Made by a program: the position numbers and the translations under genes | In this document: positions 7,212 to 51,638 of the stretch, piece after piece | Layout: each line of letters begins with the position of its first letter | Position numbering within the stretch: the stretch's first letter is position 1 | Source of the DNA: Eledone cirrhosa | Taxonomy: Eukaryota | Assembly: GCA_964016885.1 (NCBI GenBank) | Contig: OZ024743.1 | Span: 371,690,001-371,754,000 of the forward strand | Reading direction: 5' to 3' | DNA length: 64,000 bases | Notes under the pieces: generated by a model | What the model was told of the DNA's origin: nothing | Databases searched by the model: none | Seen by the model: only the letters and a program-made list of their open reading frames with translations

Positions 7212-7282
7212 TATATGTTTTATTATACATATTTCAAAGGTACAATGGTGTTTCAGTACGTTTTCATCAGATAAAATATATA
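7212..7282 (-). ncRNA. Type I hammerhead ribozyme motif, family A (divergent copy), in a PLE 3' end remnant
   Basis: Reverse complement reads TATTTTAT-CTGATGA-stem II-GAAA-TATGTA-TA-ATAAAACA. Confidence 0.65.
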
Positions 7283-7561
7283 AGAGATTGGATATGTGAC
7301 ATACCGCTAAGGTCTTGAATCTTCAATTCCTGTAGTGGCAGTAAGTTAGTTCCCCAGCACTCAACATTTATATACCACAAATATTATGATAAACTTAGAG
7401 AAGAAGACGTAAAGCAACAAAGAAATATAGAAAGGGAGTTGAAAGGGAAGATGCGGAGAGAAAAGAAGGGAAATAAAGAAAAGAAGAAAAGGAAAGGATA
7501 AAGTAAAGGAGAGAATAAAAAATCCCGTTGTATTCAAATGCTAGACAAAAATTATATTATA

Positions 7562-7702
7562 CTAGCTGACGTACTCAGCTTCGCCTGGGTAAACAGATGA
7601 TAAGAGAAGACAGGTAAAAGAGAACATTACTGTATTGGTTGTTTTTATATCTATATAATCACCAATAATACTTATATTTATACACTTATTAATCTATATA
7701 GA
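7562..7702 (-). mobile_element. Short non-autonomous Helitron-like element
   Basis: Minus strand ends ...ACCCAGGCGAAGCTGAGTACGTCAGCTAG|T (hairpin plus CTAG). A possible A|TCTATATA 5' end lies near 7702. Confidence 0.45.
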
Positions 7703-7704
7703 TA

Positions 7705-8363
7705 TTTATATACTTACAACCTGTTGCAATATAATAAGATAAAATGTACTTACAACCATAATTCTTCATATAATCTAATTGATTATATATATAATATATA
7801 AATAATAACTAAATATTTTTTAAAATTCTGGTATCATATACAACAGACTCTTAATTCTTAACATTTCAATCTTTTTAAATTCACATAAATACAAACTTTT
7901 CTTTCTTTCCCTTTCTTCTTCCTACACATACATATATATATCCTAATAATTATTTAAATCTACCTAGCGTCTAAAAATAACGTTTTTTTTCAGCCCTATA
8001 CCTCAACCTCATTTGCATATTCATCTTAATAATTTGAAATATTTGATTTTTCCTCTCTTTCCCCTTTTTCCTTTTACTATCCAAGTAAAACTTGAACCGT
8101 TAAGATCTCCTTGAACCGTTAAGATCTCGTTCCTGGATATGTCAATATTTATAAAACAAACTTTGTATTTTATCTGATGAGAGCGTACCAAAGTTTTGGT
8201 ACCCTTGAAATATATATAATAGAATAAATATGGTTTTATAAATATAGTTTCCATTTATTTAATATCATTGATATTATACTCCAGAAAACTTGTCGAGTGC
8301 TTCGAATCAGTTATAAACATTTATATTTGTTGAATTACCAACAAATTAAATATCTCTTCTACT
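7705..8363 (+). mobile_element. Penelope-like element 3' end / pseudo-LTR
   Basis: Inverted homolog of 8404-8990, contains a hammerhead, and ends at a (TA)n tract. Confidence 0.7.
8148..8243 (+). ncRNA. Type I hammerhead ribozyme motif, family A
   Basis: CTGATGA 8174-8180; stem II GTACCAAA/TTTGGTAC; GAAA 8207-8210; palindromic TATATA stem III; TA cleavage site; stem I ATTTTAT/ATAGAAT with a TTATAAAAC/GTTTTATAA extension. Confidence 0.8.
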
Positions 8364-8522
8364 TATATATATATATATATATATATATATATATATATAT
8401 ATAAGTAGAAGAGATATTTAATTTGTTGGTAATTCAACAAATATAAATGTTTATAACTGATTCAGAGCACTCGGCAAGTTTCTGGACTAAATATTCAATG
8501 ATATTAAATAAATGGAAACTAT

Positions 8523-8620
8523 ATTTATAAAACCATATTTATTCTATTATATATATTTCAAGGGTACCAAAAACTTTGGTATGCTTTCATCAGATAAAAT
8601 ACAAAGTGTGTTTTATAAAT
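8523..8620 (-). ncRNA. Type I hammerhead ribozyme motif, family A
   Basis: TCATCAG 8587-8593 and TTTC 8556-8559 on the + strand; same stems as 8148-8243. Confidence 0.8.
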
Positions 8621-9671
8621 CCTGACATAGCCAAGGAAACATACCTTATCAGTTGAATTTTCCTTGGGTAGTGAATTTAAAGAACGGATTTTTCAAACTT
8701 TTAGGATGAGTATGCAAATGATATGTAAATGAGGTTGAGTTATATGATTGAAAAACCGTTATTTTAAATGCTATGGAAAGTTTAGATATATTAGTAGGAG
8801 AGAAAGAAAGAAAGAAGAAAAAGGAAAAAGAAAAAGAAGACCGCTTATATACGTTAATTTGGGGGAAATAAATTTGAATATTTACCTATATTATGTATAT
8901 ATTTATATGGAGAATTATGTTTGTAAGTATTTATCTTATTATAATATTGTAGTGGGTTAAATATATAAATATCTCTATATATTTTAATAGTAGCATATGT
9001 ATTATTATTAAAGAGATAATTTGCAATTATTAGTTATTTATAATATGAGTTACAAAGAATGTTGATTTTGTGTTCAAGTTTTAGGTGGTTGTTTATAATG
9101 AGTTACGAGGGAAGTTGATTTTGTATTTTATGTAAATAAATAGGTAGTTAAAATTATGAATTTATATATTTGAATATCTTGTTCGGCTTTGAGAATGTTT
9201 TAAATAATATAATAATTTTATATGATTGAGAAAGGAAAGATAACTTCAATTTTGTTTGTTAATCGATAAATTTTTTAAAGATTTAGTGTGAGATTAATTA
9301 ATTATTTAGTCGAAAGAAATGTGAATGTTTAAACATCGTCTTGAATAGGATACATTTTCCTAATGTCAGTTAATAGTTATTAATCTACGTTTAAAAATAG
9401 CTTTAGAGGGTGTCATTGGAAAAATATAATGTAAGAATTAAAAAATTAAAATTATATAGCTATACATAAATATATATAAATATATATAAATATCTATACA
9501 CACATATATATATATATATAAATAAATATATATATATATATATTAAAAGAAATTTTTGCTGAAAGGTGAAAGTACTACAAATATTAGAGATATTACCATA
9601 TAGAGATATTAATATATTAAAAATTTAAATTGTTAAAGAAGATAGGATCATTTTGAAGATTTATAGGAATA

Positions 9672-48200: not shown

Positions 48201-48752
48201 TGTTTACATAATTTTTCCTGTTGGACCATATTCACCATAAGCAACACAACTACCACCTCCTCTTCTTCTCACTTATATACATACCATTATCCTTCATAGC
48301 AATATAGCCCTACCTGTCATTATACTGGCCAACCTTTGAAATCCTGCTAACCACTTATCCCCAGCCTCTCCTCACCTCAGCTTTTTCCCCTTTCATTCTT
48401 CCCAATTTTGATATTTATAATTTCATATAAAGAAAATTTTATGCTTATCCCAATTACAACTCTTTACAATTCATTACCTCTGCCATATTGAAAACCACTA
48501 TTCACCATCTACCCACTCCCGTCTTCAACCCACCCACCATAACCCAATAACATGAATATAAAATGAGCACCGGAAATATGTCAACAGTTTGAATGGGACC
48601 ATCCATGTAAACTCTAATATGTGAAGAAGTATCGATTAACAGTCAGGATCCAATTGCATGATCAAACCTGAGCTGATCGATATGATAAAGTTTACAAAAC
48701 AGCTGCAATTCTTATTGACACTTTAAATATAAATTTAAATATATAAATATAT

Positions 48753-49830
48753 ACGTGAGGTGTTCAGGATTGCTAGTCAATGCGTCAAAAAAAACGTGAT
48801 ATTGTCGGGGAGAAATGTGTCCGTAATGATGATAGTATACTTGCCATCACTGATGTTGATAAGAAGGTAGCTTGGAAGTGTCACTACGAGAGGCTACTAA
48901 ATGAGAATAAATGGGAAAAAGATAGTCTGCCCCAAATCGATCCAATAGAAGGACCAGCGGTGCAAGTTAAAGGAAGTATAATAAGTAAGGCAATCAAAGA
49001 TATGAAGACAGGCAAGGCAGCTGGGCCTTCGGAGATAGTTGCTGAGATGTTGAAAGCATCTGGATCGGTGGGACACACAATGGTCACCCGGATAGTGAAC
49101 CAAGTAATACAGAATGGGGCCATACCAAATGACTGGCGTAGCAGCATCATCATTAACTGCTACAAGGGTAAAGGAGATGCCCTAGATAGGGGAAACTATA
49201 GAAGCATTAAATTAATTGACGAGGTCATGAAGATCACAGAAAGAGTTATAGTGTAACTAATCAGAGAGCGAATTGATCTAGATGAGATGCAGTTTGGATT
49301 TGTGTCAGGTAAAAGTACCCCGGATGCTCTTTTCCTTGTACAACAACTACAGGAGAAGTACCTAGCTAAAAGTAAACCCCTATACTTAGCTTTGGTTGAC
49401 TTGGAGAAAGCCTTTGACAGAGACCCCCGCTCCATTATCTGGTGGGCTCTTAGAAAACTAGGTGTTGATGAATGGCTTGTGAGAGCTATACAAGCCATGT
49501 ATAGAGAAACAGTCAGCAAGGTTAGAATTAACAATGAATATAGTGAAGAATTTAGCGTAAAAGTTGGTGTTCATCAGGGCTCTGTCCTTAGCCCCCTCCT
49601 ATTTATTATTGCCCTTCAGGCTATAACAGAGGAGTTAAAGACCGGCTGCCCGTGGGAACTTCTATAGGCAGATGATCTAACGCTCATAGCTGAATCAATG
49701 ACCGAGCTAGAGAAGAAATTCCAAACATGGAAGCACGGCCTAGAATCAAAAGGCCTTAAAGTTAACTTGTCTAAGACTAAAGTTCTAGTATGTAGGAAGG
49801 AAAATAGGGCACTGGTCCCCTCAGGGAAAT
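48753..49830 (+). mobile_element. RTE LINE internal fragment (subfamily B-like)
   Basis: ORFs at 48780-49830 are homologous to the 31907 ORF and contain stops. Confidence 0.92.
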
Positions 49831-49892
49831 ATATATATATATATATACATATATATATACATATATATATATATATACATATATATATATAT

Positions 49893-50224
49893 TCATTTCA
49901 TTTTACGTCCGCTTTTCCCTGGTTGCAAGGGTGGGACGGGAACTGATTCTGGCTTGATTTCTACAGCTGGATGCCCTTCCTAACACCAACCTCATTTACA
50001 GTGAGTGCTGGGTGCTTTTTTTGCTGTGGCACCTCCACGACCACTTTGCAGTGGAATGATATGGACCCCAGTCCCTATCATCTCATTTCTACAGCTGAGT
50101 GAACTGGAGCAATGTGAAATAAAGTGTCTTGCTCAAGGAAACAACACATCACCCGGTCAGAGAATTGAACTCACAATCTTTTGATTGCAAGGCCAATGCT
50201 CTAACCACTAAGCCATGTGCCTCC
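49893..50224 (-). mobile_element. tRNA-derived SINE family 1 (CORE-like centre, RTE-derived tail)
   Basis: A box TGGCTTAGTGG, B box GTTCAATTC and CCTTGAGCAAGACACTT centre; the tail matches RTE 3' ends. Confidence 0.85.
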
Positions 50225-51368
50225 ATATATGTATACATATATATATATACATATATATATATGTATATATACATATATATATACATATATATATATATAT
50301 ATATATATATATATATATATGTATACATATATATATATACATATATATATATGTATATATACATATATATATATACATATATATATATGTATATATACAT
50401 ATATATATATACATATATATATATGTATATATACATACATATATATATATGTATATATACATATATATATATATATATATATATATATATATACATATAT
50501 ATATATATATATACATATATATATATGTATATATACATATATATATATGTATATATACATATATATATATGTATATATACATATATATATATATATATAT
50601 ATATATATATATATATATATATATATATATATACATATATACATATATACATATATATATATATACATATATATATATATACATATATATATATATACAT
50701 ATATATACATATACATATATATATATATACATATATATATATATACATATATATATATATACATATATATATATATACATATATATATACATATATATAT
50801 ACATATATATATACATATATACATATATATATATATATATATATACATATATATACATATATATATATATATATATATACATATATATATATATATATAT
50901 ACATATATACATATATATATATATATATATATACATATATACATATATATATATATATACATATATATATATATATACATATATATATATATATATATAT
51001 ATACATATATATATATATATATATACATATATATATATACATATATATATATATATATATATATATATATACATATACATATACATATACATATATATAC
51101 ATATATACATATATATATATATATACATATACATATATATATATATATATATATATATATACATATACATATATATATATATATATACATATATATATAT
51201 ATATACATATACATATATATATATATATATATATACATATATATATATATATACATATACATATATATATATATACATATATATATATACATATACATAT
51301 ATATATATATATATACATATACATATATATATATATATATACATATATACATATATATATATATATAC
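50225..51368. repeat. Compound (TA)n/(TACA) microsatellite, ~1.15 kb
   Basis: Directly visible. Confidence 0.99.
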
Positions 51369-51514
51369 AGTATTTTCCGTTGTGTTGTAATATAAATATT
51401 ACACACAGTAGATTATCAGCTCACGTAGAGTTTGCTCGACGGTTCCAGTTGTAGTTCCAAAAGTAATCCGGAGAAAAATAGAAAGATTTGAATGGATACA
51501 GTTTAGTTGAAAGG

Positions 51515-51638
51515 AATTTATTGACACGTGTTTCTATAACAGTTACATAACCTAAAACAGCTATCTACAAACTTTTAGTTATGCAGACATTCAATATTTC
51601 AATGTTATTATTTACTGTCATTTCATCAGAATAATATT
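51515..51638 (-). ncRNA. Type I hammerhead motif, family D (long stem II, palindromic CACGTG stem III)
   Basis: Reverse complement reads TTATT-CTGATGA-aATGACAGT...ACTGTTATa-GAAA-CACGTG-TC-AATAA. Confidence 0.6.

Follow-up and report, generated by a model that had tools for sequence, protein, structure and literature searches.

A 64,000-nt window of the 3.0-Gb genome of Eledone cirrhosa (contig OZ024743.1, positions 371,690,001–371,754,000) consists of repeats: reverse transcriptase (RT) frames of the long interspersed nuclear element (LINE) type, pieces of Helitrons, and TA microsatellites. In a first-pass annotation of this window, thirteen type I hammerhead ribozyme motifs were reported and sorted into four families, A to D. 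The locus thus raises the question of which elements carry these motifs and what a self-cleaving RNA could do in their propagation. We assign families A, C, and D to Penelope-like elements (PLEs), with the hammerhead in the pseudo-long terminal repeat (pLTR), and family B to a non-coding lineage. The reading that we consider probable is that both kinds of hammerhead are likely to cut tandem transcripts and that rejoined RNA would serve as the template. In all DNA searches of the genome, the best 40 matches per search were scored.

Hammerhead motifs in the window

A hammerhead-like motif was found at all 13 annotated coordinates, six times on the minus strand (core nucleotide C3 at 7270, 8593, 10965, 11409, 13155, and 51629) and seven times on the plus strand (C3 at 8174, 10708, 11549, 13560, 16770, 35777, and 38503); below, motifs are named by the position of C3. 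A strict type I descriptor recovered 9 of the 13 motifs vs. 0.01 per shuffled window (100 shuffles, maximum 1), and a relaxed one recovered 11 vs. a mean of 0.225 (200 shuffles, maximum 2). The two motifs missed by the relaxed descriptor, 16770 and 38503, are both damaged family members. On this evidence, the 13 sites are derived from hammerheads, as annotated, but they are not all intact: for instance, the motif starting at 16759 is decayed, that at 38478 is split, and that at 10895 carries a G8A change. An Rfam scan gave zero hammerhead family matches in the window at E values up to 1.

The core CUGANGA, GAAA, and UH, in type I order, was present in the family majorities of A, B1–B3 (subfamilies of B), C, and D. 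Stems I of the motifs were 5–8 bp. Stem II was 26–31 nt in A, 39 nt in C, 49 nt in B, and 88–92 nt in D, so the unusually long stem II noted earlier for B–D was found again. Its closing pair, 10.1–11.1, was G-C in B1 and B2, G-U or A-U in A and C, A·A in the main D subfamily, and A-U in the D sister subfamily. Stem III was a perfect palindrome in A and D; in B1 and C, it was imperfect and could also close as a weak hairpin. Helix pairing was seen in A, C, and D; changes on both sides of a pair were counted for the B lineage and were absent in D. No nucleotide similarity was detected among A, B, C, and D around the motifs, and in this sense the families are unrelated, as had been stated; their proteins are not, since those of A, C, and D are 34–43% identical.

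Penelope-like element families A, C, and D

As read from motifs, the single open reading frame (ORF) of these families encodes an RT core (YRDD) followed by a C-terminal GIY-YIG domain (xxY...YVG). The frame is 785 codons long in D, 714 in a relative of C, and 637 in A. The proteins of D and of the C relative contain RWK, DKT, CxCX5C, CxxC, and CxH and lack CX2-5CxxC; the A protein contains DKT, CxCX5C, and CxxC, with RWR in a decayed copy and CxH in the window copy. In the sequences examined, at most one Cys lies between the GIY and YIG halves, and CCHH is absent. RWK, DKT, CxCX5C, CxxC, and CxH are features of the Hydra clade of PLEs (PMC8557442). A protein database search yielded 299 relatives, with 31–43% identity among the matches listed, nearly all of these being unnamed. 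With Pfam, the five PLE proteins searched gave no match, and a PDB sequence search gave nothing below E 0.4. Insertion into (TA)n, pLTRs, and 5′ inversions were observed in A, C, and D. From these sequence characters, we identify A, C, and D with high confidence as PLE families with Hydra-clade motifs. Three PLE families and the non-coding B agree with the earlier expectation that several PLE or retrozyme-like lineages are present.

Family A is represented in the window by the following features:

7216–7278, minus strand: hammerhead of a diverged subfamily (C3 7270, cleavage base 7224), recovered with descriptors
8148–8242, plus strand: hammerhead with a stem III palindrome (C3 8174, cleavage base 8218)
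8404–10343, minus strand: 5′-truncated element with an RT-thumb/linker/GIY-YIG frame (10343–9672), 3′ untranslated region (UTR), and pLTR with a hammerhead (C3 8593, cleavage base 8548)
10323–10803, plus strand: rearranged 5′ junction of the A element, with pieces of the ORF pointing in both directions and a pLTR in inverted orientation (C3 10708)
11309–11779, no single strand: two pLTRs, head-to-head (C3 11409, minus; C3 11549, plus)
35697–35870, plus strand: pLTR of a second subfamily (C3 35777, cleavage base 35826)
35950–38557, plus strand: second subfamily, with an ORF remnant (35986–37081), 3′ UTR, and pLTR (C3 38503)
39358–39420, plus strand: the rest of the 38503 pLTR past an insertion, with the 3′ strand of stem I

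The 8174 copy stands tail-to-tail with the 8593 copy, with a (TA)20 run between them, and the pLTR pair at 11309–11779 is nested within the microsatellite of family C. The window shows features typical of PLE anatomy, with 5′ partners in inverted orientation and insertions nested within TA runs. The frame 10343–9672 and hammerhead 8593 are colinear with loci L246 and L248. Several copies are damaged: a substitution disrupts the stem III palindrome of 10708, 11409 has U·U at the base of stem II, and stem III of 38503 is interrupted by an insertion of ~0.8 kb, with the pLTR resuming at 39358. Genome-wide, a tight A-type pattern gave 32,271 exact matches, and the reversed pattern gave 0. The ~800-bp insertion itself (38558–39357) is flanked by TA repeats and terminates in a short GC-rich inverted repeat followed by CTAG, an end that we take to resemble the 3′ end of a Helitron.

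Family C comprises three features:

10868–11313, minus strand: 3′ pLTR (C3 10965 with the G8A core change, cleavage base 10907)
14816–16205, minus strand: frameshifted ORF remnant, from the RT core to GIY-YIG
16145–16870, plus strand: inverted 5′ partner of the C element with a decayed hammerhead (C3 16770)

The CUGACAA variant annotated at 10895 is present; the family majority has CUGACGA, and hammerhead 10965 is therefore probably dead. In 16770, the base of stem II is ACCA/TCAT vs. ACGA/TCGT in the family. The ORF remnant is 63–77% identical to the intact 714-codon relative. It lies on one strand with hammerhead 10965, and the microsatellite between them has taken in A and B copies. In loci L243 and L244, the ORF and hammerhead follow each other in this order and sense, and the inverted partner is present too. 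The C pattern had 464 matches genome-wide and its reverse 0. The C relative is young, with many intact 714-codon frames (L136 and other loci); it keeps the stem I strands of C but has a different stem II of 26 nt, which suggests that stem II is swappable as a module. At one further locus (L030:1180-1400), a C-lineage pLTR whose stem II has A·A at its base runs, in sense, into the 5′ end of a B1 copy, and the joint falls at a short TA motif.

Family D is present as a single piece:

51368–51690, minus strand: 3′ end of a D element (C3 51629, cleavage base 51523, palindromic stem III)

This piece corresponds to the last 323 nt of the element, is 99.4% identical to the full unit, and is followed by (TA)n; upstream, it is cut by an assembly gap. 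The core closes on a distant GAAA, so that stem II is 88 nt long in the window copy, compared to 92 nt in the family majority; stem I is 5 bp, and there is an A·A mismatch at 10.1/11.1. Closure on a nearer GAAA was rejected because no stem I forms, and a three-way junction in stem II was rejected because folding prefers a rod. Elsewhere in the genome, 77 scored matches were 98–100% identical, 30 of them with the 785-codon frame. The unit is 3,631 nt long, with the hammerhead both upstream and downstream of the ORF, and the end of the ORF was found within 1.5 kb upstream at 11 of 25 hammerhead loci. The earlier statement that B–D lack a linked ORF consequently stands for the non-coding B, but not for C and D, given the ORF remnant in the window and the full ORFs elsewhere. 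No internal stops were present in 73 of the 77 scored matches; with the endonuclease being C-terminal, a Naiad or selenoprotein reading of D was rejected. D is the youngest family examined and, judged from its sequences, is likely still mobile. Contigs of runs X1–X3 cover the D pLTR–ORF junction piecewise and are uninformative on expression.

The copies of D also bear on the template. Genome-wide, C17 was kept in 2,875 of 2,891 copies; the remaining 16 comprise 11 substitutions and 5 copies that start at the cut, 3 of which are fold-back junctions. All 25 full-frame copies pass the unit junction, and their 5′ ends are scattered, with none within 35 nt of the cut. With C17 kept in 2,875 copies and starts at the cut limited to 5, the usual template of D is not a linear cleaved monomer; it is an uncut multimer or a ligated circle. 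Of 86 stretches, 35 had their 3′ end at +45 and 29 had it at +155, the two main end sites; 8 continued into the ORF, and 14 ended otherwise. Two such ends match the internal RT initiation of a lizard PLE (PMC11167929). Both-sided changes were found in 0 of 29 stem pairs among these close relatives.

The non-coding family B

The two B copies of the window are arranged as arms:

12681–13327, minus strand: left arm, non-coding unit with the longer 3′ end (C3 13155, cleavage base 13086)
13357–13932, plus strand: right arm (C3 13560, cleavage base 13629) with a predicted rod hairpin at ~13680–13880

The right arm stops at the shorter of the 3′ sites, where (TA)n follows. The B unit is 680 nt long, and its longest frame is 79 codons. 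Subfamilies B2 (700 nt) and B3 (660 nt) are 67–76% identical to B1 and to each other, and more subfamilies surfaced with a core pattern: among 20 loci picked by eye from its matches and fetched, 19 hold the motif, and all 19 align to the B unit. A conserved B 22-mer had 4,232 matches. No sense PLE frame was found upstream of B within 1.5 kb at 90 loci, some of which overlap, or within 5 kb at the 19 further loci. PLE matches did occur within 1.5 kb at 7 of the 90 loci, either antisense to the main B copy, downstream, or belonging to the C element of the window, and within 5 kb at 4 of the 19, none upstream in sense. B gave no match to the loci of A, C, the C relative, and D, a sample outside which most PLE families of the genome lie.

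RNAalifold, applied to 16 B-lineage copies, returned the hammerhead fold unprompted (stems I–III around an unpaired core), together with a rod of ~190 nt. Covariation, for which the first-pass annotation had asked, was found: 18 of 78 pairs change on both sides, a number reached in 0 of 500 shuffles, and stems I and II both hold such changes. In slid controls, the paired fraction dropped from 94% to 35–46%. The core was invariant in 11 of 11 columns; the structure was derived from the tested alignment, and 13 of its 16 rows had been chosen by the core pattern. For the rod, the result was modest, with 4 of 58 both-sided pairs across three subfamilies (reached in 24 of 500 shuffles), and the B3 rod alone was not more stable than shuffles (z −0.8 vs. 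−4.3 and −3.9).

Copy anatomy was scored at 82 of the 90 loci, after dropping eight overlapping or window loci. TA repeats terminate 68 of these copies, 32 have a 5′ inverted partner, and 42 are longer than one unit, some narrowly. The 3′ ends fall at two fixed sites, ~+300 and +400–430 from the cut. In head-to-tail dimers, the hammerheads are 660 and 709 nt apart, and contig C1 has a run of three units at 657 nt; the majority of sites have one or two units. Where a copy is longer than one unit, it runs on into B at an invariant junction. We conclude that B is probably a non-autonomous lineage; its sequence characters suggest that it is likely a retrozyme copied by a PLE-type RT.

Two observations concern the surroundings of the B hammerhead. 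Upstream of the core, two motifs are kept in B1, B2, and B3, namely CCAAT (−113 to −115) and GCCAT-TT (−66 to −68); we take these to resemble CCAAT-box and YY1 promoter motifs, and they may form an internal promoter. At L229:700-1850 (minus strand), the endonuclease end of a further Hydra-type PLE abuts a B2 copy, with no TA run between them. This junction is possibly a template switch and gives a weak hint of a partner of B.

Long stem II as a wider class

A long-stem pattern (74–104 nt between the core halves, with the stem III of D and the main D type excluded) gave 88 matches vs. 0 for the reversed pattern. We examined 50 of the 88 (30 as returned and 20 picked); 16 belonged to D or its sister subfamily, and 34 were other sequences with a stem II of 76–102 nt. 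A stem I of at least 3 bp is kept in 19 of these 34, vs. 13% in cross-family pairings, and a sense PLE frame lies upstream in 3 of 34. When a rod was fitted to a nine-sequence group from its own sequences, 82% of cells were paired (0 of 500 shuffles), but both-sided pairs were unexceptional (115 of 500 shuffles). With default settings, RNAalifold returned only 14 pairs for group G1, at −0.15 kcal/mol, and groups G2 and G3 did no better than column shuffles. The long-stem class is real; the modeled rod is moderately supported, as its fitted pairing beats shuffles while both-sided pairs are unexceptional and the RNAalifold result is weak. The long stem II is predicted to form a bulged rod that leaves the core intact, and we guess that it has a protein-binding or gating role.

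Of the 88 matches, 19 are one GC-rich repeat (L298, L312, and 17 more) with 76 nt between the core halves and an identical palindrome; no stem I was present beside the core in the two copies fetched. When 1.0 Mb of flanking sequence (loci L001–L252, overlapping) was scanned under relaxed settings, 269 hammerhead-like motifs were recorded in 42 sequence clusters, with a stem II of 12–96 nt, so the genome holds many more families than A–D.

Predicted self-cleavage, template, and alternative explanations

The steps of the reading that we consider probable follow what is known of PLEs and retrozymes. A copy arranged in tandem or partial tandem would be transcribed; two hammerheads would pair via the self-complementary stem III and then probably cleave as a dimer, and the cleaved monomer would be ligated into a circle. 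The GIY-YIG domain would nick (TA)n, and RT would start internally at one of two UA-rich sites and could run past one unit length, by which the pLTR would be rebuilt. Self-cleavage of the element RNA is predicted from sequence. We give the circle step an even chance in B, where it is favored because a non-coding lineage keeps the fold, and somewhat below an even chance in A, C, and D.

Several points weigh against this reading. The core-constrained single-strand fold lies 1–5 kcal/mol above the minimum, folding z-scores of ten motif regions range from −3.0 to +0.5, and the main D subfamily has A·A at 10.1/11.1. The invariance of the B core is partly circular, owing to the derivation of the structure and the choice of rows described above; the covariation in stems I and II is not. 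Partner searches did not find an autonomous element with a B-like pLTR. The read-through of the cut site in D fits an uncut template equally well. In published work, the one reconstituted PLE cleaved only with protein, and cleavage was dispensable for insertion (PMC11167929); among vertebrate retrozyme dimers, one of nine cleaved in vitro (preprint 10.64898/2026.07.22.740005).

Some of these points lead to the alternative that fares best, in which RT copies uncut read-through RNA from an internal start, with no circle, and the hammerhead cuts later or with the aid of protein; such cutting might, for example, restrict read-through or double-stranded RNA, or free the RNA once it has been copied. 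We regard it as a serious contender, if a little short of an even chance. The two fixed 3′ ends in B and D and the lack of a 5′-end pile-up at the D cut site are as this alternative would have them, and so is the lizard PLE, in which RT starts internally at two sites, the hammerhead is protein-dependent, mutants insert normally, and zero RNA reads end at the cut (PMC11167929). It accounts less well for B, a lineage with no coding capacity whose hammerhead helices nonetheless covary across subfamilies that are on average 75% identical; the fold thus matters in the cycle of B itself. Moreover, the coral, mussel, and axolotl retrozymes tested form circles (PMC7229834, PMC7761336).

B could instead be what is left of the pLTR or 3′ UTR of an autonomous PLE, with the full copies unsampled. 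PLE copies are mostly 5′-truncated, the searches scored the best 40 matches, and the vertebrate preprint (10.64898/2026.07.22.740005) ties retrozymes to pLTRs. Nevertheless, B copies longer than one unit continue into B at the invariant junction, with hammerhead spacings of 660 and 709 nt, and a sense upstream ORF was found at 0 of 109 B loci, which makes this explanation improbable.

That the motifs are functionless relics or chance matches in AT-rich repeats, with the D ribozyme killed by its long stem II, is very improbable: several window copies are damaged, Rfam has no hammerhead match, and D has 0 of 29 pairs with both-sided changes, but the shuffle controls gave 0.01 and 0.225 per window, reversed patterns gave 0 vs. 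32,271 (A), 464 (C), and 88 (long stem II), the youngest family examined, D, kept C17 in 2,875 of 2,891 copies, and other long-stem families keep stem I (19 of 34 with at least 3 bp vs. 13% cross-family).

A signature of A-to-I editing was rejected as well, the ratios of private A>G to T>C changes being 0.72–1.28 in five sets, none of them significant.

Other features of the window

LINE-type elements with an AP endonuclease, RT, and an internal PHD finger are located at 31892–35128 and 18417–21410, with related copies at 42652–45401, 53000–56056, and 60966–63203; their open frames reach 1078 and 997 codons. A second LINE type with RT and zf-RVT is present at 59094–60590 and 1561–2636. Helitron-like helicase fragments lie on the minus strand at 28176–28730, with a Pfam match, and at 29596–30081, adjoined by a 29-bp repeat in 95 copies (25386–28141). 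Broken frames at 45869–47354 (minus strand) look by eye like RT and integrase of a long terminal repeat (LTR) retrotransposon and have no Pfam match. Tandem arrays occupy 5728–6325 (37 bp, 16 copies) and 31375–31670 (99 bp, 3 copies). tRNA-like matches below the Rfam threshold were located at 50158–50217, 51934–51991, and 58280–58337 (minus strand) in a short repeat, probably a tRNA-derived short interspersed nuclear element.

Comparison with known systems and significance

Hydra-clade PLEs, including Hydra-1_Obim of Octopus bimaculoides, share with the families described here the single ORF with C-terminal GIY-YIG and common motifs, TA targets, a pLTR hammerhead, partial tandems, and 5′ inversions (PMC8557442). 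Hydra hammerheads commonly have a non-canonical pair at the stem II base, U·U being frequent. The hammerhead listed for Hydra-1_Obim is matched by none of A–D. Listed Hydra hammerheads have a stem II of up to ~25 nt vs. 39 nt in C and 88–92 nt in D; that of D is thus about four times longer than any listed for the clade, and two or three non-Hydra entries have a longer one, up to ~50 nt. Hydra units are generally <3 kb, whereas the D unit is 3.6 kb, and the 3′ ends of D lie ~110 nt apart compared to a tail of 30–40 bp in Hydra PLEs (PMC8557442). Minimal PLE hammerheads (PMC4209133) likewise are of type I, with a short stem III that is self-complementary; they are predicted to act as dimers and occur in thousands of dispersed copies, with inverted pairs 100–700 bp apart. 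Their stem II is 6–8 bp with a small loop, in contrast to the bulged hairpin of 39–92 nt here. PAc, a Poseidon PLE of Anolis, resembles the elements here in its two internal RT starts 3′ of the hammerhead, AT-rich targets, and cDNA that spans the cut site (PMC11167929). It belongs to a different clade, and its start sites are not homologous to the target, whereas here the 3′ ends fall on short TA motifs that the target shares; unlike in PAc, the hammerhead here is wholly upstream of the ORF.

Family B is similar to metazoan non-LTR retrozymes (PMC7229834; preprint 10.64898/2026.07.22.740005) in being non-coding and low in GC, in its head-to-tail unit with one type I hammerhead and predicted self-paired RNA, and in co-occurring with PLEs. 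Its unit of 660–700 nt compares with ~150–350 nt in tested animals (PMC7229834) and 51–972 nt in the preprint. B differs in that its sites mostly hold one to two units and a pLTR homologue was not found; the marks of PLE insertion on B (TA targets, two fixed 3′ ends, and 5′ inversions) are direct. Literature on cephalopod retrozymes or on a stem II of 75–100 nt in PLE hammerheads was not found in an incomplete library without Repbase and Dfam, where families A–D may already be catalogued. The system is of a known kind; what is new in it is the great length of stem II and the presence of a diversified non-coding lineage whose anatomy is PLE-like. Specialists would expect PLE hammerheads in such a genome, and the overall surprise is moderate.

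The role of the hammerhead in PLEs and the mobilizer of animal retrozymes are posed as open questions in the literature available. For these questions, the genome of E. cirrhosa offers a young family with intact ORFs (D), a covarying non-coding lineage with PLE marks (B), and tens of thousands of copies, and the cut-site count excludes the linear cleaved monomer as the usual D template. Given that stem II is far outside the listed Hydra range and Rfam missed 13 of 13 motifs, such ribozymes are probably undercounted. Our most far-reaching proposal, which we put forward tentatively and hold to be rather unlikely, is that B is a long-lived viroid-like circular RNA lineage of 660–700 nt, with its covarying hammerhead and ~190-nt rod, which diversified independently while being put into TA microsatellites by a Hydra-clade RT, and that the stem II rods of 75–100 nt in D and other families are a conserved add-on domain making the dimeric hammerhead protein-gated. 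If that were true, D and B together would be a natural system for studying both the function of PLE hammerheads and the mobilizer of retrozymes.

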